DNA of 48,467 bases from an uncultured Eubacteriales bacterium (GCA_964643285.1 CAZXSP010000002.1:1-48467); one strand, 5' to 3'; counted from the stretch's first letter, positions 2,978-34,975 are shown. Numbers and translations are program-made. The notes: generated from the letters alone by a model not told the origin.

Positions 2978-3316
2978 ATGGGCGGTTCCTGGATAAATAC
3001 GATTATACGGTTCGTAGTATCAGCTATAGTACTCATGGTAATGGGGCTTGTGTTGCCCGGATTTTCAGTATTCGGGTTTGTAAACGCTTTGGTAGCCGCT
3101 TTGGTGATAGCGGCTATAGGTTGGGGAGTTGAGGCTGTTCTTGGCCAAAGGGTTTCCCCGCAATCCCGCGGCATAGTGGGATTCATCGTGGCTGCTATCG
3201 TCATTTATGTGAGCCAGTTTGTAGTTCCGGGAATGAGCGTTACTATCATTGGCGCGCTTCTGGCTTCATTGGTAGTCGGAATAATAGATGCATTTGTTCC
3301 TACCGTCATAAGGTAA
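2978..3316 (+). CDS. small 4-TM membrane protein, holin-family-4_2 / YvlD-like
   Basis: 112 aa and very hydrophobic, with the repeated pattern LVLPGFSVFGFVNALVAALV / FVVPGMSVTIIGALLASLVV typical of that family. Strong SD TAAGGAGGTG upstream of the ATG. Confidence 0.5.
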   Translation: MGGSWINTIIRFVVSAIVLMVMGLVLPGFSVFGFVNALVAALVIAAIGWGVEAVLGQRVSPQSRGIVGFIVAAIVIYVSQFVVPGMSVTIIGALLASLVVGIIDAFVPTVIR

Positions 3317-3390
3317 AAACAGAAGAAAGGCGGGCAGGGGTAGTCCGGTCATTAACTGCCGCTCTTACTCATATCCAAAGAAGAGAAGGA

Positions 3391-4506
3391 GTGGCGCCGG
3401 TGAAGATTAAAGGAAGACCCCTTGCTCGCCTTTTTCGCCTCACTCTTTTACAAACGCTTTTGGTAGTGTTACTTCTGTGTTTTTCGTTAGCTATCCATCC
3501 AAACGTGTGGCTGCCTACATTCGGCGGCCAGGAAGGGGCGGCCCCGGGGGAAATACGTACCTTTTCTGTGTTTGACTTGCTGCGAAAGCAAGAAGACTTG
3601 GTGAAGAAGGTATTCAAAGCGGGCTTTCCTATTGTCCAATACCTTGAAAACCATCGCTACGACGCGGAAATTCCCGGTTTCATGTCTTACATCGCCGGTT
3701 GGTTCTTAGGCTTTGTCCCCGGAAACATGTGGGAATTGGCGGCTGCCCAGTTTCCCGGCGGCCTTACCGCATGCGCGAAAGATCCCATTGCAGCCCCCGA
3801 GGATTTGGAGAAAGATTGGGGAATTATGCCGGTGTTGTACTCTTTACCGCCGGGTGAAGGCGTACAAGCATCTGTGGGCATGGCCGACAAACCCATGATC
3901 GCCATATACCATACCCACGCCACAGAGTCGTATCTGCCTGACCTTGGCAAAAAAGGATCCGAAAACGCCTTTACCAGCGATATGACAAAGTCTGTGGTCA
4001 AAGTAGGAGAAATGTTTTTATCCGAACTGGAAAAACGGTACAGAATTCCGTGTATTCATTCAAAAACGGTTCACGACGAGGAATCCCGAGCGGGCGCGTA
4101 TTGCAGGTCCGAGACGACAATTCAAGCCATACAAAAAAAGTATCCTTCGTGCCAAGTGTTGCTTGACCTTCACCGTGATAGTCAACCCAGAAGCATTACG
4201 GCGGTAAAAATACGGGATAAACAGTATGCCAGAATACTTCTGGTAATAGGAACCAACAATCCTAATTGGGTGAAAAACTACGAATTCGCAAGGTCGATAA
4301 CATCGTATCTGGAAGACGCGTACCCGGGAATTTCCAGAGGAATATTGTACGCTTCTGCCAACTACAACCAGAACTACTCGCCTCAGGCCCTGGTGGTTGA
4401 GGTTGGAGGAATCGACAACACGCTGGCTGAATGCAAAAACAGTATGGAAGCTTTGGCATGGGCTGTAGCAGCTGCCCTGCTTCCAAGTATCCCCGCCAGG
4501 CCCTAA
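3391..4506 (+). CDS. spoIIP: stage II sporulation protein P
   Basis: N-terminal TM segment followed by SpoIIP-type amidase motifs: IAIYHTHATESY, VLLDLHRDS, ILLVIGTNNPNW, YNQNYSPQALVVEVGG. GTG at 3400 (SD AAGGAG 3386..3391, 8 nt spacing) is a more likely start than 3391. Confidence 0.88.
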   Translation: MAPVKIKGRPLARLFRLTLLQTLLVVLLLCFSLAIHPNVWLPTFGGQEGAAPGEIRTFSVFDLLRKQEDLVKKVFKAGFPIVQYLENHRYDAEIPGFMSYIAGWFLGFVPGNMWELAAAQFPGGLTACAKDPIAAPEDLEKDWGIMPVLYSLPPGEGVQASVGMADKPMIAIYHTHATESYLPDLGKKGSENAFTSDMTKSVVKVGEMFLSELEKRYRIPCIHSKTVHDEESRAGAYCRSETTIQAIQKKYPSCQVLLDLHRDSQPRSITAVKIRDKQYARILLVIGTNNPNWVKNYEFARSITSYLEDAYPGISRGILYASANYNQNYSPQALVVEVGGIDNTLAECKNSMEALAWAVAAALLPSIPARP

Positions 4507-4532
4507 TCTTTGGCCGCGCGTCGCAATTCTCG

Positions 4533-4562
4533 TTGACACTTCGGCTTTTTACGTGCTATCTT
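4533..4562 (+). promoter_or_regulatory. sigma-A promoter of the hrcA operon
   Basis: TTGACA (4533..4538), 18 nt spacer, TGcTATCTT extended -10 (hexamer 4557..4562). Confidence 0.65.
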
Positions 4563-4571
4563 CCATTTAGG

Positions 4572-4598
4572 TTAGCACTCCACCATTTAGAGTGCTAA
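4572..4598 (+). promoter_or_regulatory. CIRCE operator (HrcA binding site)
   Basis: Perfect consensus TTAGCACTC-N9-GAGTGCTAA, located immediately downstream of the -10 box and upstream of hrcA. Confidence 0.95.
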
Positions 4599-4615
4599 AG
4601 AAGGGAGGCCTGCCA

Positions 4616-5641
4616 GTGGTTCTCGACCGTAGAAAAGCCAGGGTGTTAAGGGCAGTCGTCGAGGAACACATCGAGACCGGACTTCCTGTAGGTTCCCGGG
4701 TTATAGCGCGCCGCTATTCTTTGGGCGTTAGCCCGGCTACTATCAGAAACGAGATGGCCGATCTCGAAGATACGGGTTATCTTGATAAACCCCATACCTC
4801 CTCCGGGCGGGTTCCGTCCGATAGGGGATATAGGTTTTATGTAGACGAACTCATGCCCCAAAAAGGGCTGTCCCAAAATGAGTTGTTGTCGCTTGAAGTT
4901 TTGTTTAGAACAAAGGCCAAAGATGTAGTGTCTTTTCTGCGGGAAACCGTAAGAGTCATATCGGAAACTACAAATTACCTGGGTTTTATACTGGGACCCG
5001 ATTCAAGTGAGGTTATTTACACCGGCATCCACCTGTTGCCGGTGTCTGTGGGCAAGGCTTTGTTGGTTATAGCAACCGATGTTGGTTTTGTGGAAACATG
5101 TGTTATAGAAGTCCCGCCCATGTCTTTGGACGAAATGCGAAGCGTCTCCGACATGCTAACCCAAAATCTTGCCAATGTGGAACTGGCAAAAGTACCCGAT
5201 AGGGCATATTCCATGCTGCACGAAGAAACTTCCGGGTATGGCGAAATCGTGGAACAAGTGGTGGAGTTTCTGGGCGGCCTTGAAACTTGGTCCGACGGCG
5301 AAAAGCTATTTGTGGGCGGCACGGCAAACCTTTTGAGTCTGCCCGAGTTCAAAGATATCGACAAAGTAAAAAAGCTCCTTTCGGTTATAGAAAGCGAAGA
5401 TCTAATCAAATGTCTTCTGGGTAGGGAACCTCAAGTTGACGGGCCTTCTATTACCATCGGCGAAGAAAACGAATCCGAAGCAGCCAGGGGTTTCAGCATG
5501 GTTTACGGTAAGTTTTCCGCGGGTAAAAGTCAGGGCAAAATCGGTCTTTTGGGCCCCAAAAGAATGGATTACTCCAAATCAGTCGCTATCGTAAAATTTT
5601 TTGAAAGCAGATTGTCTTATTACCTGTCGCAACTATCGTAA
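4616..5641 (+). CDS. hrcA: heat-inducible transcription repressor HrcA
   Basis: N-terminal winged HTH (RKARVLRAVVEEHIETGLPVGSR...SPATIRNEMADLE..GYL.KPHTSSGRVPS..GYRFYVD). GTG at 4616 follows SD GAAGGGAGG. The track ORF begins at 4592, inside CIRCE. Confidence 0.92.
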   Translation: MVLDRRKARVLRAVVEEHIETGLPVGSRVIARRYSLGVSPATIRNEMADLEDTGYLDKPHTSSGRVPSDRGYRFYVDELMPQKGLSQNELLSLEVLFRTKAKDVVSFLRETVRVISETTNYLGFILGPDSSEVIYTGIHLLPVSVGKALLVIATDVGFVETCVIEVPPMSLDEMRSVSDMLTQNLANVELAKVPDRAYSMLHEETSGYGEIVEQVVEFLGGLETWSDGEKLFVGGTANLLSLPEFKDIDKVKKLLSVIESEDLIKCLLGREPQVDGPSITIGEENESEAARGFSMVYGKFSAGKSQGKIGLLGPKRMDYSKSVAIVKFFESRLSYYLSQLS

Positions 5642-5667
5642 CAGCTAACGCCCAAAGGGGGAAAAAG

Positions 5668-7248
5668 ATGACTCTCAAACAAGCCGCTCAGGGCTCGGAA
5701 ATCGATGAAAAGCTGGCAGCTTTGCTCACCAATTCAAATGCGGTTCGCGCTATAGCGTCGGCGGTTGAGGGCACAATCGGCCCTAAGGGGTTGGATACGT
5801 TGCTTGTAGACAGATATGGCGAGGTTGTCATAACCAATGACGGTATGACCATTCTCACCAAAATGGACGTCACACACCCTGCTGCCAAAATGGTCATCAA
5901 CACAGCGAAAGCCCAAGAGGAAGAAGTGGGCGATGGTACCACAACGGCCACAATTATAGCGGGCGCCCTTCTGGCGGAAGGGGTATCTCAAGCTATCCGC
6001 GGGGTACCTGTAACAAGGCTTATAGACGGAATCAAGACCGGCATGGAGAAAGCGGTGCAGTTTGTAGGAGAGAACTCCACAAAAATCCAAGGTGTCGATG
6101 ACCCTCTTCTGAGCAGGGTGGCACTCATTGCAGGCCGCGGGCATAAAGATGTCGCCGAGTTGATTGTTTCAGCCGCTAAAATGGTTGGATTGGAAAAACT
6201 TTTGGATGGCCGGTTCAAGCTCGCCGACACTATTGTCGCCAAAGAAGGCGCCAATAACGAAGTTTTCGCGGGAATCATCGTTGACAAAGAACGTCTTGAA
6301 GACGAGATGCCTGAATGTCTGGATAACCCCAAAATCTTGGTTATCGACGATGCCTTGGAACCTGAAGATGTGGAAGACGAAGCCTTAGCCACAGAAGCCG
6401 GATTCAATCGGTATTTGGCTTTGCAAGAAGAATTCAAGGCCAATTTATCCAAAGCCATAAGTTTGGGCGTCAATTTGGTGGTAGTGGACAAAAGCATCTG
6501 CGATACAGCGGTTGAAATGCTTTTGGACGCGGGCGTCATGGCTTTATCCCGCGTGTCGTCGGCGGAGCTTCGAAAAGTGTGTGAACACACAGGGGCCAGA
6601 ACCCTGAAGCGTACCGGGCTTAAGAAAGACGCAAACGAATTGGAAAAGTATCTTGGGAGGGCCGATAAGGTTTACCAAGACCAAAAGCTTGAAAACATAA
6701 GGATTCTCGGGGGCAAAGGAAAACCAATGGCAACCGTCTTGGTTGGCGCCACTACAGAAGAAGTGCGCGGTGAAAGACAGCGTATCTGCACTGACGCTGC
6801 GTCATCGGTGCAAGCGGCTATTAAAGGCGGTGTGGTGCCCGGGGGCGGAGCCATGGAGATGGCGGCGTCTTTGCAAGTAGACAGCGTCAAGGCCACTCAG
6901 AAGGGAATGCAGGTTTACGGTGTCCAATGCGTAATTGAAGCTCTAAAACAGCCGTTAGCGCAAATTGTCTCCAACGCGGGCTTCAATCCTTTGGAAAAAG
7001 TGGGCGATGTGGCTGCCCGTCAAGGGGAAGAAAATAATTGGAATTTGGCGCTTGATTGCGATACAGGCGAAATATGTGACATGTTCGATATGGGCGTGAT
7101 CGACCCCGCCCCGGTGAAAATTCATGCCTTGAAGGCAGCTCTGGAAATTGCCTGCGCGATTTTGCGGATTGACACCATAATCAAGAAAAAAGAAGAAACC
7201 GATGGCGCGCAAAAACCTAAAAACGCTTTGGAGGCTACGGGCTTTTGA
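5668..7248 (+). CDS. thermosome-like chaperonin (Cpn60/TCP-1 family, archaeal-type group II / bacterial group III)
   Basis: 526 aa with group II signatures: [62 protein letters not shown]. No GroEL-type motifs and no groES nearby. SD AAAGGGGGA upstream. Confidence 0.88.
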
Positions 7249-8390
7249 GTAAGGATTATTACGAAATTTTAGGAGTAAATAAGGACGCCGACCCCGACGA
7301 TATCAAACGCGCTTTCAGGCAGCTCGCCAAGAAGTACCATCCTGACGCCAACCCCGGGGATTCGGGCGCTGAATCTAAGTTCAAAGAAATCAATGAGGCG
7401 TATGACGTCCTGTCGGATCCAAGTAAAAAATCCAATTACGATGCTTACGGAAACCCCGAAGGGCCTGTGGTTGGCCCGGGACAGGGCGGCGCTGGCGATA
7501 ACCCGTTTGGTCAAGTGTTCGGCGATTTCGGAGGCATCCCCTTTGGGAATCTTTTCGAAGATCTTATGGGCGGGGGCAGGAGAAGAAGTACCGGGCCCAG
7601 ACGTGGCGCTGACCTTGAGCTTGAAATGGACATTACCTTAGAAGAAGCTTTTTCGGGAACCGATAAAGACGTGCGGATACCGAGGGTTGAAACTTGTTCG
7701 CGTTGCGAAGGCAGCGGCGCGGAACCGGGAACAAAGGTCACGACGTGCCCTACTTGTCACGGGACAGGTCAGGTTCACGAGGCGCGCTCCAGCATCTTCG
7801 GCCAGGTGATGACCGTAACCACCTGTCCCAAATGCGGGGGGACGGGAAAAATGGTGGAAAAACCTTGCCGCGAGTGCGATGGTCTTGGACAGCTTCAAAG
7901 AAACCGCACGGTTACCGTGAAGGTCCCGGCAGGCGCCGATTCAGGGCTTCGGCTGCGTTTAGCCGGGCAGGGTAACGCCGGTAGTCAAGGCGGCCCCACA
8001 GGGGATCTTTATGTGGCCATTTTCGTAAAACCTCATGCTATATTCCAACGCCAAGGCGACGATCTGATTCTGGACAAAGTCATAAGTTTCCCTTTGGCCG
8101 CAGTGGGTGGCACGACGCGAATACCTACCTTGGAAACCGATATCGATTTAGATGTGCCGTCGGGTACCCAGCCCGGGGCTGTTCTGCGCGTAAGAAACAA
8201 AGGCATGCCCCGGCTCAGGCAAAGAAGTAAGGGCGATCTTTTGGTTCGGGTCAACGTTCGCGTTCCTACTAAACTTTCCTCTAAAGACAAAGAGACTTTG
8301 AGAAGTATGGGTAAGCTCGATGGAGAAGCTTTCAAGGATTCCCGTACCCTTTTTCAGCGCCTAAAAGGCGCCGGGGAGTCCGGTAAATAG
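7245..8390 (+). CDS. dnaJ: chaperone DnaJ (type I: J domain, G/F region, four CxxCxGxG zinc motifs)
   Basis: DYYEILGV...KKYHPD J domain. Zinc motifs CSRCEGSG, CPTCHGTG, CPKCGGTG, CRECDGLG. The TTG start overlaps the chaperonin stop (TTGA). Confidence 0.95.
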   Translation: MSKDYYEILGVNKDADPDDIKRAFRQLAKKYHPDANPGDSGAESKFKEINEAYDVLSDPSKKSNYDAYGNPEGPVVGPGQGGAGDNPFGQVFGDFGGIPFGNLFEDLMGGGRRRSTGPRRGADLELEMDITLEEAFSGTDKDVRIPRVETCSRCEGSGAEPGTKVTTCPTCHGTGQVHEARSSIFGQVMTVTTCPKCGGTGKMVEKPCRECDGLGQLQRNRTVTVKVPAGADSGLRLRLAGQGNAGSQGGPTGDLYVAIFVKPHAIFQRQGDDLILDKVISFPLAAVGGTTRIPTLETDIDLDVPSGTQPGAVLRVRNKGMPRLRQRSKGDLLVRVNVRVPTKLSSKDKETLRSMGKLDGEAFKDSRTLFQRLKGAGESGK

Positions 8391-8400
8391 GGGGGTAGAT

Positions 8401-9150
8401 TTGGAACATACTCCCGCTCAGTTTTTTGTTTCGCCCGACATGGTTTTGGGAAATGAAATCGTGCTTACGGGCGAGTTATATTTGCATGCTGTGGCCAGAC
8501 GCCTAAGGCCCGGGGAAGTTTTCCGCGCCGTGTTGGGGGAAACCATATATTCCGCCAAGGTAGAGTCCGTGAAAGACGGCAGGGTAATGGCGGTTATTTT
8601 GGATAGAGTGAAAACCGCATCACCTGACACGAAAATCAATCTGTATCCCGCTGTGCTAAAAGGGCAGAAATTTGATTTGGTCGTGGAAAAGGTTACCGAA
8701 CTCGGTGTGGCTACCATCAACCCTGTAATAACCCGGCGCGCAATTCCGCGAATCGATGCTGATAAGGCAGAGGCCAAAAAAAGGCGTTGGGAGAGAATCG
8801 CAAAAGAAGCGTCTCAGCAATGCGGGCGTCCCAATCTGCCCGAAATTCGGCCGGTCCAGAAGTTCCACGAACTTTTTGCAGGTGATTTGCGGGGCCTTCT
8901 CCTACTGACTTATGAACACGAAAGCCCTAATAGCCTCGATTGCAGGCATCTCCTCGAACTCTTTCAGAACGTGGAAGAAGTATCACTGTTGGTAGGACCC
9001 GAAGGAGGGTTTGACGCTTCGGAAATCCGCGCCGCTTTTGAAAACGGGTTTAAGCCATTTTCTCTCGGTCCATACATCCTCAGAGCTGAGACGGCATCCA
9101 TTGTGGCTACAGGAATTGTGGCCAGGCTTTTGGCTGAACGCTCCCTGTAG
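8401..9150 (+). CDS. rsmE: 16S rRNA (uracil1498-N3)-methyltransferase RsmE
   Basis: 249 aa with PUA-like N-terminus and SPOUT C-terminus (KFDLVVEKVTELGV, LLVGPEGGF...E). The position after dnaJ matches Bacillus yqeU. TTG start. Confidence 0.85.
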   Translation: MEHTPAQFFVSPDMVLGNEIVLTGELYLHAVARRLRPGEVFRAVLGETIYSAKVESVKDGRVMAVILDRVKTASPDTKINLYPAVLKGQKFDLVVEKVTELGVATINPVITRRAIPRIDADKAEAKKRRWERIAKEASQQCGRPNLPEIRPVQKFHELFAGDLRGLLLLTYEHESPNSLDCRHLLELFQNVEEVSLLVGPEGGFDASEIRAAFENGFKPFSLGPYILRAETASIVATGIVARLLAERSL

Positions 9151-9231
9151 CTGTGGGCATTATCTCCATCCCTCACCAATACTTTGAAACGAGAAAAACA
9201 TCTTGGAAATGGTATTGGAAGGGGCGTTATT

Positions 9232-9966
9232 ATGCTGACGCTAAGATCCAAATACGTGGCATTTTTGGCTATGGCTTTTGTTCTTTGGGCAGCTTGTGGT
9301 GCTGATTTGGTGGGTATGTACAATTCCGGCAGGGCTTTGCCGGCGTTGGCGCCGATTTTCCGGGGCCATACAGGTAACGCTGCTGCAAGCCTCATGTTTA
9401 ACGTGGACTGGGGCGAAGAGTTTCTGCCCGAAATCTTGGATATCTTGGAGGCTAAGGGAGCTAAAGCTACCTTTTTTATGACCGGGTCATGGGCGGAAAA
9501 AAACTCCGAGCTTGCCACTTTGATTTCTGAGAAGGGGCATGAACTTGGAAACCACGGGGGCTCTCACGTTCATGTGGAAACCCTGGCCAAAAAGGATCTG
9601 CACGATGTGATAAAGATGGGCGAAAAACGGATATTTGACTCTACGGGGATTAAGCCGGCTAAGCTTTTTGCGCCCCCTTACGGGGAGTGGACAGACGACA
9701 CAGTGAACTTCGCTTTGGAGATTGGCTATCAAACCATTTTGTGGACCACTGACACGGTGGATTGGCAACGGCCGCCGCCTGAAACCATCTGGAAAAGAGC
9801 CTTGGCAGGCGCGAAACCCGGGTGCCTTTTGCTTATGCACCCGACAGAAAACACTGTAATTGCTCTTCCCACAATTGTTGACGGGTACAAAGAGAAAGGT
9901 TTGGCTTTGGTGACAGTGTCCGATAATGTGATGAAGAAACTAGGGCCCGTACTGCCCGATTCTTAA
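9232..9966 (+). CDS. polysaccharide deacetylase (NodB domain), sporulation PdaB-like
   Basis: Signal/TM segment, then FNVDWGEE, ATFFMTGSWAEKN, GHELGNHGGSH, LFAPPYGEW, LLLMHP. These resemble B. subtilis PdaB (FDISWGDE, ATFF..SWAE). ATG 9232 follows SD GGAAGGGG; the track ORF starts at 9184. Confidence 0.8.
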   Translation: MLTLRSKYVAFLAMAFVLWAACGADLVGMYNSGRALPALAPIFRGHTGNAAASLMFNVDWGEEFLPEILDILEAKGAKATFFMTGSWAEKNSELATLISEKGHELGNHGGSHVHVETLAKKDLHDVIKMGEKRIFDSTGIKPAKLFAPPYGEWTDDTVNFALEIGYQTILWTTDTVDWQRPPPETIWKRALAGAKPGCLLLMHPTENTVIALPTIVDGYKEKGLALVTVSDNVMKKLGPVLPDS

Positions 9967-10111
9967 TAAAGACCGGTATTCTGCTAATATCTGACTGAAG
10001 GTTTTCCACATAGGCCTTAAGGGCCCCGCTATTTTGTGGGCAAGTCCTGCGTTTTCCCGGATTTAAGGGTAAAATTGTGACGGTGATTTGATTTTAGCGG
10101 AGGTTTTTTAT

Positions 10112-11449
10112 TTGATCCGTAAAACCGTTTCATTCAAAACGCTTGGATGCCGACAGAATCAATATGATACCGACTTTTTAAAGCAAACGTTCAGGGACAA
10201 AGGTTTCCAAGTGGTAGATTCGGGACCTACTGACCTTGTGGTTGTCAATACTTGCGCTGTTACAACCAGAAGCGCCGCCAAATGCAGGCAGGCCATAAGG
10301 GCCGCTGTCAGAACCGGGGCCAAGGTTTTGGTGACAGGCTGTTATTCTCAGGTTGCCCAAGACGAAATAGTCGACATACCCGGTGTAGTCGTTGTTTCAG
10401 GGGTGCACGCAAGGGGCGAATTGGCGTCATTGGCCGAAAAGGCTTTGCTGTCTGAGGCTTCCCAAAACGGACAAAGTGGCCAATCCCCTCCTGTTATCGC
10501 TGTTCGGCCTCACGATGATGGTGAATTGTTTGAAGAAACTCCGGTGCCTTCGCCGTCTCTTACCAGGGCATATCTGAAGATACAGGAAGGCTGCGGCGAT
10601 TTTTGCACGTACTGCATAGTCCCTTTCGCTAGGGGCCCGTCGCGTTCAAGGGACCCTGAGCGGGTTCTGGAGGAGGTCAGAAGCCTGGTTCAAAAGGGCT
10701 TCAAGGAATTGGTGCTCACCGGAACACATTTGGGCTTGTATGGCCAAGATCTGAACGCCAACAAGACATCATTGGCCAAAATGGTCAGGGATATATGCCT
10801 GGTACCCGGTTTGATGCGGTTAAGACTGAGCTCGCTTGAGCCCCACGATGTTACCCAAGATTTGATAGATTGCCTCAGGCGCCCGCAAGTGTGTCACCAT
10901 TTGCATTTGCCCCTTCAAAGCGGAAGCGAACGAATATTGAGGCTTATGGGCAGAAGATACAGGGCCAAGGATTTTCTCGTGACACTGGAAAATGTTCGAA
11001 AAGTAGCGCCTGACGTTGGGATCTCCACAGACATAATTGCCGGTTTTCCCGGGGAAACAGAAGATGACCACAAGGATACCTTAAAGGTCATGCAAGCGGC
11101 CGGCTTCTCAAGAGTACACACGTTCAAGTTTTCTGCCCGTCCCGGAACTCGGGCGTGGGAATTTCCCGATAAAGTGCCCGAAAAGCATAAACAAGCCAGG
11201 GTCAACGACATTATGGAATTGGGCAGGGAACTTTCTCTAGAGTTTCACAGTAAACATGTAGGCGGGGATTTCGAGGTTCTGGTGGAAGAAGCGAGAACAG
11301 CCGAGGGCTTTTTGACGGGAGTCACCAGAAATTTCGTCCGCTGCTATTTGCCGGGCGGCGACGAGCTCAAAGAAACGCTTCAAAACGTGAGGGTAAAGTG
11401 TGTCACTTCAGATGGGGTGTTTTGCGAGGCTTTAGCCATTTCAGAGTAG
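10112..11449 (+). CDS. mtaB: tRNA threonylcarbamoyladenosine methylthiotransferase MtaB (radical SAM)
   Basis: UPF0004 N-domain (FKTLGCRQNQYD, VVVNTCAVT), radical SAM CGDFCTYCIVP, and a C-terminal TRAM region. TTG 10112 follows SD GCGGAGG; the track ORF starts at 10088. Confidence 0.85.
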   Translation: MIRKTVSFKTLGCRQNQYDTDFLKQTFRDKGFQVVDSGPTDLVVVNTCAVTTRSAAKCRQAIRAAVRTGAKVLVTGCYSQVAQDEIVDIPGVVVVSGVHARGELASLAEKALLSEASQNGQSGQSPPVIAVRPHDDGELFEETPVPSPSLTRAYLKIQEGCGDFCTYCIVPFARGPSRSRDPERVLEEVRSLVQKGFKELVLTGTHLGLYGQDLNANKTSLAKMVRDICLVPGLMRLRLSSLEPHDVTQDLIDCLRRPQVCHHLHLPLQSGSERILRLMGRRYRAKDFLVTLENVRKVAPDVGISTDIIAGFPGETEDDHKDTLKVMQAAGFSRVHTFKFSARPGTRAWEFPDKVPEKHKQARVNDIMELGRELSLEFHSKHVGGDFEVLVEEARTAEGFLTGVTRNFVRCYLPGGDELKETLQNVRVKCVTSDGVFCEALAISE

Positions 11450-11468
11450 AGAAAACAGGAGGATTACA

Positions 11469-12581
11469 ATGTCAATGCGGTTGGGTCTCCTTTTTGGCGG
11501 CAGGTCCGGGGAGCACGAGGTTTCGGTAAGGTCAGGGCACGCGGTGTGGAAGGCTTCCGTAGACGCCGGTTTCAGTGTTGTGGGGGTAGGGATCACTCGT
11601 CAAGGACAGTTTGTCTATCTGGGTGACTGCCAAGACTTTTTTGCCAAGGGCCCCCAAGAAGTAAACGCTTACATGGGCCCAAAATGCTTTATTTTTCCCG
11701 ACCCCGCCATGGCGGGTATTTATGTAGAACAAGATGGGGTTTTCAGCAGAGAACCTATAGCCGTCGATGTGATTTTCCCGGTTTTGCACGGTTCCTACGG
11801 CGAAGACGGAGCTATGCAGGGCTTGCTTGAGCTGTCAGGTATTCCCTATGTGGGAGCGCCTGTGCTTGGGTCGGCTGTATGCATGGACAAAGATGTGGCC
11901 AAAAGGCTTTTGGCTCACGAAGGTGTTCCCCACGTTCCCGCTTTTGCAGTAGACAGGTTTTCGTGGCAGGCTGATAAGTCGCAAGTGCTAAGCCGGTTAT
12001 CTGGAAAAGTCGATTATCCCTGTTTTGTGAAACCTTCCGGTTCCGGCTCAAGCCTGGGCGTAAGCAAGGTCAGACAACCCGAAGATATTTCGGACGCCTT
12101 GGACTCGGCGTTCTTATACGACACGAAAGCCCTTGTGGAACAATCCCAGGAGGGACTCATGGAAATCGAGTGCAGTGTCCTGGGAAATCACCGGCCTATA
12201 GCCTCTTTGCCGGGCCAAATCTTGCCGCTACGCGAGTTTTACGATTATGAAGCCAAGTACGTCGAAGATACCACGGGGCTTCTAATTCCGGCCCCTTTGG
12301 GGGACAAACTCACCAAAAGGGTACAAGAAGTGGCAGTGCGGGCGTTTTTGGTGACCGGTTGCCGGGGAATGGCAAGGGTTGACTTTTTTGTGGACACCAC
12401 AAAAGAAGAGGCATACGTTAACGAGATCAACACTATTCCCGGTTTTACGTCTATCAGCATGTATCCCAAGCTGTGGGGAGAATCCGGTTTGCCTTTCGAA
12501 AAATTGGTCCGAACCTTGGTTGATTTGGCCATAGAGCACAAAGCTTCCGACTGGAAAGAGGTAAGGGTGCGCCATATTTAG
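11469..12581 (+). CDS. ddl: D-alanine--D-alanine ligase
   Basis: [47 protein letters not shown]-grasp [28 protein letters not shown] upstream. Confidence 0.93.
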
Positions 12582-12605
12582 ACCTTCAGCTAAAAGGCGG
12601 CCTCG

Positions 12606-12635
12606 TTGACCTTAGTTGTCTTGGTATTGTACAAT
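12606..12635 (+). promoter_or_regulatory. sigma-A promoter upstream of rpsU
   Basis: TTGACC (12606..12611), 18 nt spacer, TACAAT (12630..12635) preceded by TG. Confidence 0.55.
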
Positions 12636-12694
12636 CCATATGTTCACCTATAGGGAGCGGGGAAACGCCTGCGGCGGAGGGAGGGACAAAAGAC

Positions 12695-12883
12695 TTGCCA
12701 GAGATTAGAGTAGGAAAAGGAGAATCTTTCGATAGTGCCCTGCGCCGCTTCAAAAGGGAATGTCAAAGATCGGGCATCCTTCGTGATGTACGCAAACATT
12801 CTCATTATGAAAGTCCGAGCGTTAAACGGAAAAAGAAGTCAGAAGCTGCGCGCCAGCGTAAAGGTAAAAGACGGTTTTATTAG
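12695..12883 (+). CDS. rpsU: 30S ribosomal protein S21
   Basis: [29 protein letters not shown]...[16 protein letters not shown] start after SD GGAGGGAGGG. Confidence 0.95.
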
Positions 12884-12922
12884 CGTGAAGATCTAACAAT
12901 TAGTTATAACAAACGACCTAAC

Positions 12923-12952
12923 GGGAACCCTCAAACGGGTTCCCTTCTTTTA
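12923..12952 (+). terminator. rho-independent terminator after rpsU
   Basis: GGGAACCC-tcaaac-GGGTTCCC followed by TTCTTTTAT. Confidence 0.8.
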
Positions 12953-12966
12953 TGCGCCTATTTCCT

Positions 12967-12974
12967 CATACACT
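12967..12974 (+). promoter_or_regulatory. possible sigma-E type -10 element upstream of yqfC
   Basis: CATACACT matches the sigma-E -10 consensus CATACAnT. No convincing -35 was found, and the implied TSS would sit at the SD, so this is tentative. Confidence 0.3.
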
Positions 12975-12990
12975 TCATTGGGGGAGTGCA

Positions 12991-13260
12991 ATGCGCAAAA
13001 GCATAAAACAGGGTCTGACTGAAATGTTGGATCTTCCCGCCGACGTGGGTTTGGATCTTCCGAGGGTGGTTATCCACGGCCATTTGGGTGTCTTGATACA
13101 AAACCACAGAGGAATTCTGCAATGCTCCGGTGGCGCCATTGTGGTTGGAATCGGAAAAGGCCAAATCACCATTTTAGGCCGGGAACTTGAGGTGGAGGAA
13201 GTCAGCAGGGAGGATGTGGTCATAAGAGGCGCCATAAACTCTGTCCAGATGGAAACCTAA
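12991..13260 (+). CDS. yqfC: sporulation protein YqfC
   Basis: 89 aa (LDLPADVGLDLPRVVIHGHLGVLIQNHRGIL...ITILGRELEVEEVSREDVVIRG). ATG 12991 follows SD GGGGAG. Located upstream of yqfD-phoH, as in Bacillus. Confidence 0.85.
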   Translation: MRKSIKQGLTEMLDLPADVGLDLPRVVIHGHLGVLIQNHRGILQCSGGAIVVGIGKGQITILGRELEVEEVSREDVVIRGAINSVQMET

Positions 13261-13261
13261 A

Positions 13262-14479
13262 ATGAGCGGGTTTTCTTTAAAGCGAGCAAAAGAATATTTT
13301 AAAGGCTATGTAGTAGTAGAGGTTCGCGGAAAGAATCCGGAAAGGCTGGTAAACCTTTGTTTATCCAGCGGGTTTCCTGTTTGGGATTTTACAGTAAAAG
13401 GGCAGAAAGCCAGGTTTTCAACGACATTATCAAAGTATAAGCAAATACGCCCTTTGGCAAGGCGCGCGCGTTGCTTGCCCAGGATTGTAAAAAGGGTCGG
13501 GTTCCCCTTCTTCATAAAAAAGGCTGCAAAGCGTCCTTTCATGCTTTGGGCATGCGCATTGCTTCTCGCGGCAATTGTCTTTCTGTCGGGTTTCGTTTGG
13601 TCAATAAAAGTTCAGGGGGCAGATCAAATAAACCCCGATGATATTCTCAGAGCCGCCCGCCAAAACGGGCTTTCCTTAGGTATGCGTCGGGCAAAAATCC
13701 CCGCCGATATAGACGCGGCAATCATAGAGCAGATTCCGGAGTTGTCGTGGGTGTATGTCCATTGTCAGGGTACGCGGGCTATTATCGAGGTCACAGAAAA
13801 AAACCGCCCTGAAACAGTGGGACCGGGAGATGTGGTGGCTTCAAAAGATGGCGTGGTACAAACGGTCCTGGTTCTGTCGGGTGTTCCTTTGGTGCAGGCG
13901 GGTGATACTGTAAAACGGGGAACCCTTCTGATAGCAGGTGACGAATCGGGAAGCATCAAAGGCGCAAGGGGGGCAGTGACTGCTCATACGTTTTACGAAT
14001 CCCGTGTTGAAATCCCTTTAGAAAGGCTCGTGCCTAAAAGAACAGGGAACACTTTTAAGGTATCTTTGATGCGTTTTAGCGGCGAGGATGACGAAACAGA
14101 AGATCACATTTCCACATACCGGGAATGGATTCTTTCAGGCAGGCGCACTATGTTTGAGTGGTATGAAATTGAAGACTACCCTTCATGGGAAGTAAAATTA
14201 CCTAACGGCAAGAAATTGCAGTCAATCGCCAGGACTTTTTTCGAGGTGCAATGGTCACGAGTTATCCTGGGGCGAAAGGAAGCAGAGGCATTGGCGGAAA
14301 AACAGGCTAAGGATTCCATGGAAAGGTTGTTGCCTTCTTCAGCCAAATTGATAGACTGGGATTGTGAAGTTGTGCCAACAGACGGTCAAAGTGTTTCAGT
14401 GAGGATAACGGCTTCGGCATTGGAGGATATTAGCGAAATACGCCAGTGGTCTGGGCAAAACACGGAGGTCGATAGATAG
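13262..14479 (+). CDS. yqfD: sporulation protein YqfD (stage IV sporulation family)
   Basis: 405 aa. Begins GYVVVEVRGKNPERLVNLCLSSGFPVWDF, has one central TM, and sits in conserved synteny between yqfC and phoH. Confidence 0.85.
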   Translation: MSGFSLKRAKEYFKGYVVVEVRGKNPERLVNLCLSSGFPVWDFTVKGQKARFSTTLSKYKQIRPLARRARCLPRIVKRVGFPFFIKKAAKRPFMLWACALLLAAIVFLSGFVWSIKVQGADQINPDDILRAARQNGLSLGMRRAKIPADIDAAIIEQIPELSWVYVHCQGTRAIIEVTEKNRPETVGPGDVVASKDGVVQTVLVLSGVPLVQAGDTVKRGTLLIAGDESGSIKGARGAVTAHTFYESRVEIPLERLVPKRTGNTFKVSLMRFSGEDDETEDHISTYREWILSGRRTMFEWYEIEDYPSWEVKLPNGKKLQSIARTFFEVQWSRVILGRKEAEALAEKQAKDSMERLLPSSAKLIDWDCEVVPTDGQSVSVRITASALEDISEIRQWSGQNTEVDR

Positions 14480-29006: not shown

Positions 29007-29144
29007 AAAACGAAGACGGGATTTATCTTGCTTATGTTGCCGTGACAACTCTTTTTGTCGGAAAGGCCTTCAACAAATGACCGCCGTATACCCCGTAAAG
29101 CCGGTGATACCAGCTTTTTAAAAAACAGCAAAAGGGGTGTCGGG

Positions 29145-29612
29145 ATGCCACTAGTAGCAAAGGGCGGCAAATACATCTTTGGTTGGTCAAGGGTAAACGA
29201 TGACCTAAGCATACAGTTACCCAAACCGGCCGTTGACGAATATGCGATAACGGCAGAAGGCAAAGTGATACTTATTTCCGGAAGCAAAAGGACAGGCGGT
29301 TTTGTAGTTACAAGGAAAGGGTTGTTGCTCGCCTCAAAAATAGGAAACATCCTAAAAGAGAATCCCAGTCTATCTAGATATGAAACCGAGGAAGGGGAAT
29401 TTACTAAATACAAAGGGCGTTTGTATTGCTGGCACGGATTGTCAGGAACAGGAATGCTGAAGATGAACGAAAAAATGATCGAGGTATTAGATATCGGTGC
29501 AGGCGATATGCTTCTTTCGATTAGGAGCAGTGATATCGCGTTTTGCATGGGCCAAAAAGGCATATTGATCGAAAGGGCCCGAAAATATCAAGACGAAATA
29601 GTTGTTTACTGA
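29145..29612 (+). CDS. hypothetical protein with two putative SpoVT/AbrB-like repeats
   Basis: 155 aa from ATG 29145 (SD AAGGGGTG); the track ORF starts at TTG 29055. Segments LSIQLPKPAVDEYAITAEGKVILISG and LKMNEKMIEVLDIGAGDMLLSIRS resemble swapped-hairpin AbrB/MazE motifs. No family recognised with certainty. Confidence 0.35.
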   Translation: MPLVAKGGKYIFGWSRVNDDLSIQLPKPAVDEYAITAEGKVILISGSKRTGGFVVTRKGLLLASKIGNILKENPSLSRYETEEGEFTKYKGRLYCWHGLSGTGMLKMNEKMIEVLDIGAGDMLLSIRSSDIAFCMGQKGILIERARKYQDEIVVY

Positions 29613-29730
29613 TGCCATAGTATCTTAGCACCTGTTTGAAGCCGACTCAGTCAACCGAGTCTAGGACCCAGAACCGAGGCGATCTTTCTGCCGCTATCCG
29701 GCATGAGGTTCAGGGGATTTCTTTTCGCCA

Positions 29731-29848
29731 CCGGTGCTGAAAATTTGGGCACCCCCTTCGCCAGCATGCTGAAATATTCAGCATCAGTTTGAATCCGGTG
29801 CTGAAAATTTGGGCACTTCCTTCGGTGACATGCTGAAATATTCAGCAC
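29731..29848. repeat. two tandem 54-bp direct repeats (64-bp period) carrying four 17-bp palindrome-like sites at 32-bp phasing
   Basis: R1 (29731..29784) is CCGGTGCTGAAAATTTGGGCACCCCCTTCGCCAGCATGCTGAAATATTCAGCAT. R2 (29795..29848) is CCGGTGCTGAAAATTTGGGCACTTCCTTCGGTGACATGCTGAAATATTCAGCAC. The sites start at 29735, 29767, 29799 and 29831. Confidence 0.9.
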
Positions 29849-29957
29849 ATGCCAACTGGTGCGAACCATATCACCAAATCTTCGCTGTAACAAACTTGTT
29901 CTCGTGTGATATAATTGTATCAATTAGTGCGTTTGTTCTGGTGATAAGCATATAATA

Positions 29958-30251
29958 GTGTCGGTGGCGTTCGTGCGAGAATACAATCTGGGATCGGATC
30001 GCCAGAAACAGATTCTCCTGCAGATCGAAATCGAAGATTTCTGCTACACGCTTCAAAACAGGAACATTGGGTTTGAGCATGAGGTTCTATATGTGTTTTG
30101 TCCCCAGGTTACCCTTTTTAACTTTGACGGTGAGAAGAAGCAGGTGGATGTTTATACCAAGTTCAATATCGTCGATTTGAATCCGGGAAACCGCGTTGTC
30201 GTCATTTCGTTCCATGAGCGCAAAAAGCCGATTACTCATTTTTTCAGATGA
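29958..30251 (+). CDS. putative MqsR-family (RelE-fold) toxin
   Basis: 97 aa. EDFCYTL...VDVYTKFNIVDLNPGNRVVVISFHERK resembles E. coli MqsR SDFYKSM...QVYLKITVIHDVLIVSFKEK. Toxin-first gene order as in mqsRA. There is no in-frame ATG; candidate starts are GTG 29958, 29964 or 29973. Confidence 0.55.
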   Translation: MSVAFVREYNLGSDRQKQILLQIEIEDFCYTLQNRNIGFEHEVLYVFCPQVTLFNFDGEKKQVDVYTKFNIVDLNPGNRVVVISFHERKKPITHFFR

Positions 30252-30283
30252 GGAGTCAGATCTTTCCAGAGGGGGGAGTTGTT

Positions 30284-31282
30284 ATGAGCAAGCAGATCGT
30301 TTTTTGCCCTGAATGCAGGCAGGACGTGAAATATACGGTGAAAACTGAATTGGAATCTGCTGAATTGAAAGGCGAAGTCTACGAGTTCGCGGCACAAACG
30401 GCTTACTGTGAGCAGTGTGCGCAGGAGGTTTACGTCGCAGAGTTTGAGGATGCTAATTTGAAGGCACTATATGATGCATACCGTAAGAAAAACGGAATCA
30501 TCTCGCTCGAGGATATCCGAGCTATTCCTGAGAAGTACAGTATTGGGAAAAGACCATTGTCCCTTTTATTGGGATGGGGAGAGCAAACTTTCAGCCGTTA
30601 TTATGAGGGCGATATGCCCACAACGCAATATTCTGAAATTTTAAAGCAGATCTTTGCGGATCCCAACCGCTATCTTTCCGTATTAGAAAAAAATAAGGAG
30701 AACCTTAGAAGCGAACAGGCCTATAAGAAGAGCAAATCTGCAACAGAAAGACTCATGGGCGTTACGATTACACAACAAAAGGCAAAAATTGATGTGGTTG
30801 TGGATTATTTCTTATCCAAATGCAGGGATATTACACCGCTGTCTTTGCAGAAGGCGCTCTATTATGCTCAGGGATTTTTCTATGTTTTTCATGGGGCCTA
30901 CCTGTTCTCGGAGGATTGCGAGGCCTGGGTGCATGGTCCAGCGTACCCTAAGATCTACCGACGTTACAGAAACTACTATTTTGACCCTATCGACAGTGTG
31001 GCCGAACCGGACACATCGGCTCTATCAGGGGAAGAGCAGCTGCTTCTGGATAGTATAGTGAAACACGTTTGCTGCTATAGCGGGAAGACTTTGGAGGCCT
31101 TTACCCACACCGAAACACCTTGGGTTATGGCCCGGGCTGGGCTTCCGGGTGATGTTTCATCAAATCGCCTCATAACGAAAAAAGCCATTGGGGAGTTCTT
31201 CATTTTGGTAAAAGAAAAGTACCGTATGCTCACGCCCGCAAATATTAGGGACTATACACGGGATCTATTTACACAGATTTAG
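30284..31282 (+). CDS. composite antitoxin: MqsA-like zinc ribbon + XRE-type HTH fused to a C-terminal DUF4065/Panacea (SocA/GepA-like) domain
   Basis: Zinc ribbon CPEC...CEQC. HTH KRPLSLLLGWGEQTFSRYYEGDMPTTQYSEILKQI resembles MqsA LSLTQKEAAEIFGGGVNAFSRYEKGNAQP. C-terminal LSLQKALYYAQGFFYVFHGAYLFSEDCEAWVHGPAYPKIYRRY is typical of DUF4065. ATG 30284 follows SD GAGGGGGGAG. The alternative ATG 30248 overlaps the toxin stop (ATGA). Confidence 0.7.
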   Translation: MSKQIVFCPECRQDVKYTVKTELESAELKGEVYEFAAQTAYCEQCAQEVYVAEFEDANLKALYDAYRKKNGIISLEDIRAIPEKYSIGKRPLSLLLGWGEQTFSRYYEGDMPTTQYSEILKQIFADPNRYLSVLEKNKENLRSEQAYKKSKSATERLMGVTITQQKAKIDVVVDYFLSKCRDITPLSLQKALYYAQGFFYVFHGAYLFSEDCEAWVHGPAYPKIYRRYRNYYFDPIDSVAEPDTSALSGEEQLLLDSIVKHVCCYSGKTLEAFTHTETPWVMARAGLPGDVSSNRLITKKAIGEFFILVKEKYRMLTPANIRDYTRDLFTQI

Positions 31283-31413
31283 TTTTGTAGATATTTGCCG
31301 TGACGGGGCAGCGAAATAGCATAGAAGGTCCACAATAGGAACACAGGCTTCCAAATAGCTAAGGTTTTTGCCATGCCAAAATACCGTCGTCTTGGTGTGG
31401 GGAAGGCGGCCAG

Positions 31414-32031
31414 TTGAAAGCTGAAGTGGTAAGCGCGGCACAGTGCAGTAAGAAAAAGGAACAATGGCAAATCGTGGCGAAAACCTGTAGGCCCCAAGAG
31501 TGTGATGGTCTAGGCATTTTCGAAGGGGATGGTGGGTTGAAAGCCCTGTATCTTCGCCACCAAAAATGGCTGGAAAAGCAGCATCTGGCAGTGTATTCTT
31601 TCGTTGTAGCGGCAGATAGCTTGGTCCTTCGCGGATTGCTCGTCGCGATCTTATCTCCAATCCTTTCATTGGTGCCGGCAGACAGACTCTATGGACCCGA
31701 ACTTGACATTCCATTGTATTATGTATTGGTTATCGCCCCGGTCATAGAGACGGCTTTTCTGCAATGGCTTCCAATATCCATAGCGAGTTGGCTAAAACAG
31801 ACGAAGCCCTTCCAGATAAGTGCCTCCGCGTTTCTGTTTGCTGCGGGGCATTGGAGTGCGGGTGTTCTTAGCATTTTGGCGGCTCTTGTAGCAGGGTTCT
31901 TTTTGGCCAATGCGTGGGTTCGTTGGAGGGGAAAAGGGATTTCGGCGGCCTTTGCCGTAGTCGCTTTGATGCATTTTTGGATGAACCTCGCAGCCGTCGC
32001 TGCTACCGCACTGGCCGCTCGAATAAGTTAG
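31414..32031 (+). CDS. CPBP (CAAX protease / Abi) family intramembrane protein with a degenerate first motif
   Basis: Motif 2 is FLFAAGHW (FxxxH) and motif 3 is ALMHFWMNL (HxxxN). Motif 1 reads ETAFLQ instead of EExxxR. TTG start after GGGGAAGG. The N-terminal ~60 aa are non-hydrophobic and of unclear reality. Confidence 0.55.
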   Translation: MKAEVVSAAQCSKKKEQWQIVAKTCRPQECDGLGIFEGDGGLKALYLRHQKWLEKQHLAVYSFVVAADSLVLRGLLVAILSPILSLVPADRLYGPELDIPLYYVLVIAPVIETAFLQWLPISIASWLKQTKPFQISASAFLFAAGHWSAGVLSILAALVAGFFLANAWVRWRGKGISAAFAVVALMHFWMNLAAVAATALAARIS

Positions 32032-33141: not shown

Positions 33142-34975
33142 ATGGTGTCCGGTGGTTTTTACGGCGACGACATAGTCGAGGAAGTTAAGGCTAAATCCGA
33201 TATTGTCTCGGTAATCTCCGAGTATGTGGCCCTCAAGAAAGCGGGCCGCGGTTACATCGGGCTATGCCCTTTCCATCAAGAAAAAACCCCCTCGTTTAAT
33301 GTGGACCCGGACAAGCAGTTTTTCTACTGTTTCGGTTGCGGCACGGGCGGTAATGTTTTTACCTTTTTGATGAAAAAAAACGGGCTGTCCTTCCCTGAAG
33401 CCCTGAAACTTTTGGCGGATAGGGCAGGCGTGCGTCTGCCCGAGTCGCGCGCGGGGTCTTCGAGGCAACGAAAACTAAAGCAAAAACTCGAGGCGGCGCT
33501 GGCCTTTGCCGCGACAAAATATACGGAACAATTAAACTCCCAACGAGGCGAGTTTGCCAGGAACTACCTGGAAAAACGCGGTTTTTCAAAACAAACGATT
33601 GAAAAATTCCAATTGGGATTTGCCCCGGATGAATGGGACTTCATGGCGACTTTAGCGAAACGGATGGGTGTTGAAATAGCCGACTTGGAGAAAGCCGGGC
33701 TCTTAGTGGCCAGGCAAAGCGGGGGTTTTTACGATAGGTTCAGAAACAGGATAATGTTCCCTATATGGAATTCCGGGGGCGATCCCATAGGTTTCGGCGG
33801 CAGGGCTTTGGGCGACGACCCGGCCAAGTACCTGAACAGCCCCGAAACCCCGCTATTTCACAAAGGAAAAGAGCTTTATGGTTTGAACCTTGCCAAGCCT
33901 TCTATTAGAAGCAACGATAAAGTGTTGTTGGTGGAAGGCTACATGGATGTTATCTCCTGTTTTCAGCATGGGGTATTTCTCGGTGGCGGGAATGGGTACT
34001 GCGCTAACCCCGGAGCAGGCCAGAAGTCTCCTGCTTCTAACCCAAAACATATATCTTGCGTATGACCAAGATGAAGCCGGCAAAAAGGCAGCCCGCAGGA
34101 CTATCGATTTGTTCCGTGACCAAGGAGGCCGATGTAGCGTAGTTGTGTTTGAAGGTGCGAAGGACCCTGACGAATTTCTCAAAACTCACGGGGCTTCTTT
34201 GTTTAAGGAGCGTATGGAAAAGGCTCTCTTGGATATAAGCTTCATTTACGAACAAACAAAAGAGTCTTTGGATGCGTCTACTATTCAAGGGAAACTTGAG
34301 ATTCAGAGGGCTATAGTCCCGGTTTTGGCTTCGCTGGAAAGCGAGTTCGAGCGCTCTGTATATACTGAGGAGATATCTAGGGATCTTGGGGTTGGGAAGG
34401 ATTCCCTCCATAAGGATGTCGAATTGTACAAGAGGAAGGACTATCGGGCTTCAAGGTATAAAAAGGGTGAAAATCGGGATACTACTGGTTATGACAACCA
34501 GCTCAAAGCCGGTTCCGGCAAGGATTCTGTCAAAGCGTCTGTATCTTTGGCAGGAACCCGGGGCGGGCATGTCGAAGAAAACGTGACTCGCCGAAAGGCG
34601 GAAGAAGGAATAATTAGATGTTTGGTAGAAAAGCCTGCATTATTCGATTCGCTTAAAGACGAATTGTGCCAGGACGATATTGAGGATGTAAATTGCCGTT
34701 TGGCATTTTCGATATTGAAGGATGGCCCAATTGCCGAAGATAATGATGGTCTTTTAGCTTGGGTCGCAGAATTATGCATAAAGTTCGGACCGGTAGCGAA
34801 GCCCGAGCGTATATTGAGGGACTGTCTTAAAAGATTGCAGGAGATTCAGCTTGTCGAACTTAGCCAGAAGATGGCTGACGCTGAACGTAAAAAAGATGAA
34901 AAGGCACTCGTTATCATTCAGGGCGACTATCAAAGATTGTTGAAACAAGTGAAATCAGTCGGCGGCACTGGTTAA
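33142..34975 (+). pseudogene. dnaG: DNA primase DnaG, reading frame broken inside the TOPRIM domain (true pseudogene, sequencing indel or recoding not distinguishable)
   Basis: ORF 33142..34065 carries the zinc finger CPFHQEKTPSF...CFGCG, the RNA polymerase domain and LLVEGYMDVISCFQHGV. The continuation SVAGMGTALTPEQARSLL...YLAYDQDEAGKKAA lies in the frame of ORF 33890..34975. The junction is within GTATTTCTCG (33973..33982), which is 10 nt where 9 or 12 would keep the frame. Confidence 0.85.

Follow-up and report, generated by a model that had tools for sequence, protein, structure and literature searches.

An HrcA/CIRCE operon in which a group III chaperonin gene is joined to dnaJ and grpE-dnaK are missing is conserved in the uncultured class Candidatus Fermentithermobacillia

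We analysed a stretch of 48,467 nucleotides from an uncultured Eubacteriales bacterium (GCA_964643285.1 CAZXSP010000002.1:1-48467, hereafter referred to as the window), for which a first reading of the sequence alone (the original prediction) had pointed to an unusual heat-shock operon. A gene for the repressor HrcA, a chaperonin gene (cpn) and dnaJ follow each other behind a promoter and a CIRCE operator (controlling inverted repeat of chaperone expression), and rsmE comes next (Table 1). The gap between hrcA and cpn is 26 nt and cpn overlaps dnaJ by 4 nt, so that there is no room for grpE or dnaK between these genes. As had been claimed, the latter two were found neither between hrcA and dnaJ nor anywhere else in the window: tblastn of the 48 kb with E. 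coli DnaK, Desulforamulus DnaK and Desulforamulus GrpE gave nothing, even at E < 1 and with short words, and no HSP70, GrpE or GroEL was found with Pfam in the open reading frames (ORFs) of the window that were searched (those of at least 150 aa not overlapping an annotated gene, about 39 of 50, plus one 123-aa ORF).

The arrangement is shared by the relatives of this organism. Scanning one representative genome for each GTDB species, we obtained 17 relatives with a chaperonin identity of 70-87%, all of them metagenome-assembled genomes (MAGs) named Candidatus Fermentithermobacillaceae, 'Bacillota bacterium' or 'Eubacteriales'. We assign the organism of the window to Candidatus Fermentithermobacillia (DTU015), an uncultured thermophilic class that consists of thermophilic anaerobic fermenters (PMC10215811). 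The order spoIIP-hrcA-cpn-dnaJ-rsmE was present in 17 of the 17 relatives, mostly continued by pdaB-mtaB-ddl, and none of them had a DnaK match within ±10 kb. The same order was observed in independent contigs from NCBI, ENA, JGI and Logan, some of which are about 800 kb long. The hrcA-cpn-dnaJ layout is genuine and class-wide.

The cpn product had been described in the original prediction as a Cpn60/TCP-1 protein with thermosome signatures belonging to a class that is not new. All five motifs quoted in support of this were found, and the protein belongs to the known group III (bacterial, thermosome-like, lidded) chaperonins. Its best natural match in the PDB was the chaperonin of Carboxydothermus hydrogenoformans (Ch-CPN; 5x9u, 476 bits), to which it is 55-60% identical and with which it aligns nearly without gaps over 506 residues; thermosomes and CCT subunits in the PDB scored at most 227 bits. 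With NCBIfam, archaeal thermosome models gave up to 300 bits, below their cutoffs of 400-671, and GroEL models 181 bits or less. These lower scores of the GroEL models ruled out a group I identity, and neither the model scores nor the PDB scores placed the protein with GroEL. In a neighbour-joining tree it grouped with 120 bacterial homologues and Ch-CPN, away from the group II outgroups.

The hallmarks of group III, as set out by An et al. 2017 (PMC5635000), are a short loop with an arginine, hydrophobic residues in the lid and a catalytic aspartate, the arginine (R155 in Ch-CPN), not a lysine, contacting the gamma-phosphate (PMC5635000). In the cpn product, the loop between alpha6 and alpha7 is 6 residues shorter than the nucleotide-sensing loop of group II and carries R157, equivalent to R155 of Ch-CPN and invariant in all chaperonin clusters. 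The segment IAGRGHKD aligns without gaps with IAGRGDER of Ch-CPN, whereas group II sequences need insertions of 2 + 4 residues at this place. The hydrophobic residues at the tip of the lid (L240, F246, Y249 and F256, corresponding to L237, F243, Y246 and F253 in Ch-CPN) are retained, D376 corresponds to the catalytic Asp373, and the lid residues and the catalytic aspartate are 87-100% conserved in each chaperonin cluster. The cpn product is a regular group III member, neither a thermosome nor a GroEL. From its identity to Ch-CPN and its catalytic residues, it is predicted to form a hexadecameric double ring and to refold proteins in an ATP-dependent, GroES-independent manner. In the PDB searches, two entries both titled 'Ancestral Group II Chaperonin (ACII)' also matched the protein, 9rwq with 645 bits and 9rwp with 282 bits. 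The former outscores Ch-CPN; it probably corresponds to the group III ancestor (ACIII) from PMC12696368 and seems to be mislabelled.

The dnaJ gene encodes a class A J-protein with all its expected parts (PF00226, PF00684 and PF01556), namely a J domain with HPD (within YHPD), a G/F region, four CxxCxGxG motifs (CSRCEGSG, CPTCHGTG, CPKCGGTG and CRECDGLG) and a C-terminal domain. Its TTG start, from which a canonical DnaJ N-terminus is read, shares two bases with the TGA stop of cpn, the 4-nt overlap reading TTGA. This start had been noted in the original prediction, along with a tight coupling of the retained J-protein to the chaperonin. Both observations hold well beyond the window: the TTGA overlap is kept in 15 of the 17 distinct loci of relatives that were analysed, and the GGAGG Shine-Dalgarno sequence lying within the last cpn codons recurs at the equivalent position in all 15 of these loci, as well as in L009. 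The overlap and the internal Shine-Dalgarno sequence suggest that translation of dnaJ is coupled to that of cpn. We also considered a C-terminal '..E..F' of the chaperonin as a docking motif and rejected it, the embedded GGAGG providing a simpler explanation for its conservation. In two related MAG loci (L011:8660-8830 and L018:11380-11780), cpn or its junction with dnaJ is interrupted by frameshifts or premature stops, which are probably assembly errors in low-coverage bins.

Within the class, the J domain is the most conserved region of DnaJ, with a mean pairwise identity of 80% (50-72% elsewhere in the protein). It has kept an intact basic helix II, and its HPD does not vary. The only role of HPD and of the J-domain surface that we know of is to trigger ATP hydrolysis by Hsp70. 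The rsmE gene starts 10 nt past the dnaJ stop and is the downstream neighbour in all relatives; no terminator-like site was found in a scan between hrcA and rsmE, and rsmE is probably co-transcribed with dnaJ.

Upstream of hrcA, the sigma-A promoter and perfect CIRCE of the original prediction were borne out by a consensus scan, by the lack of any mismatch in the operator and by conservation. The promoter matches the consensus at 10 of 12 positions, which is the joint best match within 3300-13300. Of the 17 DTU015-type loci, 14 have TTGACA...(g/a)TGCTAT(c/t/g)TT at a constant spacing to CIRCE; the deepest three (L014-L016) have the variant TGGTACTT, and the canonical loci described below also carry variants. 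CIRCE, which sits between this promoter and the first gene, is unique in the window even if up to 3 mismatches are allowed (0.01 expected by chance). Its arms are invariant and its spacer freely variable in all related loci for which upstream sequence is available. The gene that follows was rightly called hrcA (295 bits with the TIGR00331 equivalog, for a cutoff of 197); the start in the list of ORFs, at 4592, is probably not the right one. This GTG, the first in-frame start, is doubtful because it lies inside the right arm of CIRCE, and because translation from the GTG at 4616 gives a product of 341 aa, as in most relatives. The latter codon is preceded by the ribosome-binding site AAGGGAGG, kept in relatives together with the GTG, and is probably the true start. 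The locus thus has the features of an HrcA/CIRCE class I regulon, a perfect inverted repeat and the gene of the HrcA repressor.

Table 1. Features of the operon in the window, and mini-ORFs at the corresponding place in four loci (L024, L026, L028 and L032) of the sister cluster described in the text
Feature	Position	Strand	Characteristics
Sigma-A type promoter	4533..4562	+	TTGACA, 18-nt spacer, TATCTT -10, TG-extended
CIRCE operator, predicted HrcA binding site	4572..4598	+	TTAGCACTC-N9-GAGTGCTAA, 0 mismatches
hrcA, heat-inducible repressor	4616..5641 (ORF open from 4592)	+	TIGR00331, PF01628
cpn, group III (bacterial thermosome-like, lidded) chaperonin, 526 aa	5668..7248	+	PF00118, 374 bits
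GGAGG Shine-Dalgarno sequence for dnaJ, within last cpn codons	7230..7234	+	10 nt before TTG
dnaJ, class A J-protein, TTG start	7245..8390	+	TIGR02349, 428 bits (cutoff 377)
rsmE, 16S rRNA m3U1498 methyltransferase	8401..9150	+	TIGR00046, 166 bits
Mini-ORF between cpn and dnaJ	L024:11587-11925; L026:7996-8292; L028:11571-11849; L032:8586-8840		Absent from window

Group III genes are known to be embedded in the dnaK operon, alongside grpE, dnaK and dnaJ (PMC5635000, PMC5220055). This canonical arrangement was indeed what we found, as lepA-hemW-hrcA-cpn-grpE-dnaK-dnaJ-prmA-rsmE-mtaB, in Desulforamulus ferrireducens, in Sporomusa aerivorans and in an HGW-Firmicutes-14-like MAG, three loci sampled from the other two chaperonin clusters. 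The comparison of operon maps that the original prediction had proposed therefore opposes a class-wide hrcA-cpn-dnaJ to hrcA-cpn-grpE-dnaK-dnaJ in these three loci. In the window, cpn occupies exactly the place that grpE-dnaK have in canonical group III operons, and dnaJ stands directly behind it.

A second uncultured cluster (the sister cluster), the chaperonins of which are 64-70% identical to that of the window, also has an operon without grpE-dnaK. In four of its five sampled loci, an ORF of 84-112 aa is present between cpn and dnaJ (Table 1). The start and the stop of this mini-ORF overlap the neighbouring genes in L024, L026 and L028, the loci examined at the sequence level, and its product in these three matches DnaK models at about positions 223-304, i.e. 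nucleotide-binding subdomain IIB, with E-values of 2e-11 to 8e-7; the assignment of the 84-aa ORF of L032 comes from a precomputed weak HSP70 match. Comparing L024 with L026, we obtained for the mini-ORF nonsynonymous and synonymous differences per site (pN and pS) of 0.31 and 0.72 and a dN/dS ratio of about 0.16, as compared with 0.17 for hrcA and 0.21 for rsmE in the same pair. The DnaK-IIB mini-ORF is under purifying selection, unlike a pseudogene in decay. When 1.84 billion cluster representatives were searched exhaustively with phmmer, about nine further clusters of proteins came to light, of 91-107 aa and 35-51% identity, eight of which were at 44-51%, with alignments that span the whole IIB segment. 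These mini-ORFs may represent a new family of Hsp70-derived mini-proteins linked to group III chaperonins. Several DnaK-IIB-like stretches are also present in three other proteins, P0122, P0123 and P0124 (two in those of 163 and 326 aa and ten in that of 2667 aa), indicating that the IIB module occurs as tandem repeats outside Hsp70 as well.

The presence of DnaK-derived mini-ORFs at the cpn-dnaJ junction of the sister lineages shows that grpE-dnaK were removed in place, the dnaK copy of the operon having been cut down there. No DnaK remnant is left in the class to which the window belongs. The two lineages with a DnaK-less operon both have no lepA-hemW upstream and have mtaB-ddl adjacent; the gene next to rsmE is pdaB in most loci of DTU015 and in two of the sister cluster (L028 and L032). 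This shared synteny suggests that the organisms of the two lineages are related. As a separate observation, the sister locus L028 has a bona fide groEL (L028:1-1327; TIGR02348, 653 bits) about 9 kb upstream of hrcA, so that group I and group III chaperonins coexist in this lineage; no groEL was found within 10 kb of the operon in the class of the window.

We therefore consider, with fair confidence, that the locus is an HrcA/CIRCE operon derived from the group III arrangement by removal of grpE-dnaK, and that DnaK and GrpE are likely encoded elsewhere. According to this explanation, hrcA-cpn-dnaJ would be a class I heat-shock operon repressed by HrcA through CIRCE, with transcription probably continuing into rsmE. 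It would descend from an ancestral hrcA-cpn-grpE-dnaK-dnaJ that lost grpE and dnaK in place, which brought dnaJ directly behind cpn. Upon heat or unfolded-protein stress, HrcA would leave CIRCE and the chaperonin and the J-protein would be made from one mRNA. The former would fold proteins, without GroES, in a double-ring cage closed by its own lid; the latter would partner, as usual, a DnaK produced from another locus, the chaperonin being co-regulated with the Hsp70 system and not a substitute for it. We have good confidence in the specific expectation that DnaK and GrpE are encoded at another locus of the genome, because the J domain and its HPD are strongly conserved and because the chaperonin has not been remodelled: only 2 of its positions consistently differ between the lineages with a DnaK-less operon and the canonical ones, and none of these is in the lid. 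The original prediction that the chaperonin replaces Hsp70 and its exchange factor is correct as far as the operon is concerned; as a statement on function it is not supported, since the conserved J domain and HPD predict a DnaK elsewhere.

Several points weigh against this explanation. Heat induction, co-transcription and translational coupling are properties that we infer from the sequence. DnaK and GrpE were encountered neither in the 48 kb studied here nor in the ±10 kb flanks of about 25 related loci, an absence that concerns about 2% of a genome (the window and, in relatives, these flanks). A DnaK-derived fragment used as a query matched only itself (no direct DnaK query was made), and chaperone terms were absent from the supplements of the paper on the closed Bu02 genome. 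Furthermore, the dnaK of the operon was destroyed in place, not moved intact, which means that a second copy must be postulated. The history of the locus is also more complex than a single deletion, since lepA-hemW and prmA are not in their canonical places either: relative to L023, L029 and L030, the former are missing from the interval between spoIIP and hrcA (window 3391-4506) and the latter from that between dnaJ and rsmE (window 8390-8401), while prmA is still beside dnaJ in the sister loci L028 and L032. Lastly, grpE-dnaK may have been lost once or twice, both scenarios being compatible with the chaperonin tree, where internal branches are very short and 0 of 50 bootstraps unite the two lineages with a DnaK-less operon.

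One specific way in which DnaK could have come to lie elsewhere, which we regard as tentative, is that a whole lepA-hemW-hrcA-cpn-grpE-dnaK-dnaJ-prmA block was duplicated and that the two copies underwent complementary degeneration, one giving hrcA-cpn-dnaJ (the locus of the window) and the other lepA-hemW-grpE-dnaK, possibly with prmA. Such a duplication would jointly explain the DnaK remnant, the loss of lepA-hemW upstream and that of prmA downstream, in surroundings where the synteny comEC-holA-rpsT-spoIIP ... rsmE-mtaB is preserved. LepA is almost universal among bacteria, and this implies that its gene was probably relocated rather than lost. Yet no second locus was found. In particular, a sister-lineage PrmA used as a query for it retrieved no protein on any known contig of the DTU015 class; the PrmA-based look-ups led to L031, which is from an unrelated organism, and to L032, an additional locus of the sister type. 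The persistence of prmA beside dnaJ in L028 and L032 further indicates that the losses were not simultaneous.

A true loss of Hsp70, with no DnaK or GrpE anywhere in the class and the sister lineage and with folding carried out by the group III chaperonin and GroEL, appears unlikely. Equally improbable in our view is its functional extension, namely that Hsp70 and GrpE were lost class-wide, and perhaps in the sister lineage, and that the retained, coupled J-protein delivers substrates to the lidded chaperonin or regulates it. In such organisms DnaJ would be a holdase feeding the chaperonin, or the chaperonin would have become a new partner of its J domain; the stoichiometry of DnaJ and CPN would be set by their tight translational coupling, and the DnaK-IIB mini-protein of the sister lineage would be a docking module left over from an ancestral DnaK-CPN contact. 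The in-place deletion of grpE-dnaK, with a DnaK-derived fragment in the sister lineages, fits this scenario, as do the preservation of the cpn-dnaJ overlap and its internal Shine-Dalgarno sequence over class-level divergence and the lack of DnaK in the 48 kb or in any ±10 kb flank. The class also has the lifestyle of thermophilic anaerobes in common with two Aquificales, the only free-living bacteria described as devoid of Hsp70 (PMC8215388), and a functional link between group III CPN and DnaK/DnaJ was suspected by the authors of the Ch-CPN structure (PMC5635000). However, wherever a loss of Hsp70 has been documented (Aquificales, many archaea), it extended to the J-protein and GrpE (PMC8215388). 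No other region of DnaJ is as well conserved here as the J domain, in which HPD is invariant; lineage-specific changes are lacking in the chaperonin, both in the lid and outside it; and the absence of DnaK has been observed over only about 2% of a genome. In Aquificales, dnaK and grpE are likewise missing from their expected place; the difference is that all three genes are gone genome-wide, whereas in the class of the window dnaJ is under strong purifying selection and dnaK is absent from the stretches inspected.

Finally, an assembly or binning artefact that dropped a grpE-dnaK segment at 5642-5667 or 7245, as envisaged in the original prediction and as might be suggested by the MAG-type contig and by the frameshifts in some related MAG loci (L011 and L018), is practically ruled out, because the identical TTGA junction recurs in 15 of the 17 loci of relatives, in independent assemblies and at 70-87% protein identity.

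The operon that we favour, derived from the group III arrangement and with DnaK likely elsewhere, shares several features with known systems. Like Ch-CPN (PDB 5X9U/5X9V; PMC5635000), its chaperonin has the short arginine loop, the L/F/Y/F lid tip and the catalytic aspartate, and its gene lies directly 3' of hrcA under the control of CIRCE. In genomes of the Ch-CPN type, however, cpn is found inside hrcA-cpn-grpE-dnaK-dnaJ, whereas the operon of the window lacks grpE and dnaK, and its dnaJ is fused to the cpn stop codon. The canonical hrcA-grpE-dnaK-dnaJ operon of Bacillota with its CIRCE has the same promoter/CIRCE/HrcA logic, a class A DnaJ and the same neighbourhood (spoIIP upstream, rsmE and mtaB downstream); the window differs from it by the presence of a chaperonin, the lack of Hsp70 and exchange factor genes in the operon, and the lack of flanking lepA-hemW and prmA.

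The protein class, the control by CIRCE/HrcA and the link to the Hsp70 operon are already known. The context described for group III chaperonins includes grpE and dnaK (PMC5635000, PMC5220055), and the exact gene order of the window is not the one reported there. In the group III chaperonin literature that could be searched, the founding paper of 2010 aside, we found no description of an hrcA-cpn-dnaJ operon without grpE-dnaK, of its class-wide conservation or of the DnaK-IIB mini-ORFs. This founding paper, by Techtmann and Robb, reportedly mentions 'one exception' to the Hsp70-operon context.

A transfer of substrates from DnaJ to CPN would have a precedent in the eukaryotic Hsp70/Hsp40 to CCT/TRiC and the archaeal prefoldin to thermosome pathways, in which a holdase or J-protein feeds a lidded chaperonin; to our knowledge, bacteria have no prefoldin. 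The resemblance would be one of analogy. Both pathways have been invoked by the authors of the Ch-CPN work (PMC5635000, PMC5220055), and the proposed cooperation of group III chaperonins with Hsp70 was deduced from linkage to the dnaK operon alone (PMC5635000, PMC5220055). A class in which grpE-dnaK has been excised and dnaJ joined to the chaperonin gene amounts to a natural experiment on this cooperation. If DnaK is encoded elsewhere, selection favoured linkage of cpn to dnaJ over linkage to dnaK. If it is absent, the class would provide only the second known case of Hsp70 loss among free-living bacteria, and the first in which the J-protein was retained; should the J-protein then serve the chaperonin, it would be the first such system to work independently of Hsp70, and a bacterial counterpart of prefoldin/Hsp40 acting on thermosome/CCT. 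The DnaK-IIB mini-ORFs of the sister lineage designate a candidate surface for the contact between DnaK and CPN.

Besides those of the operon, the genes of the window comprise spoIIP, pdaB, mtaB, ddl, yqfD, phoH, ybeY, dgkA, recO, glyQS, ppdK and dnaG, as well as sigA, the glycolytic genes from gap to eno, and the genes for an H+-PPase and smpB. Primase (dnaG) is present as two overlapping ORFs in different frames, 33142-34065, with the zinc ribbon and the catalytic N-domain, and 33890-34975, with the Toprim and DnaB-binding parts; this split is a frameshift, either an assembly error or real. At 30248-31282, an ORF with both a SocA/Panacea antitoxin domain and an MqsA-like N-terminus lies between two ORFs that match nothing in Pfam (29055-29612 and 31414-32031). 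Together, these ORFs (29055-32031) may form a small toxin-antitoxin or defence islet among housekeeping genes.

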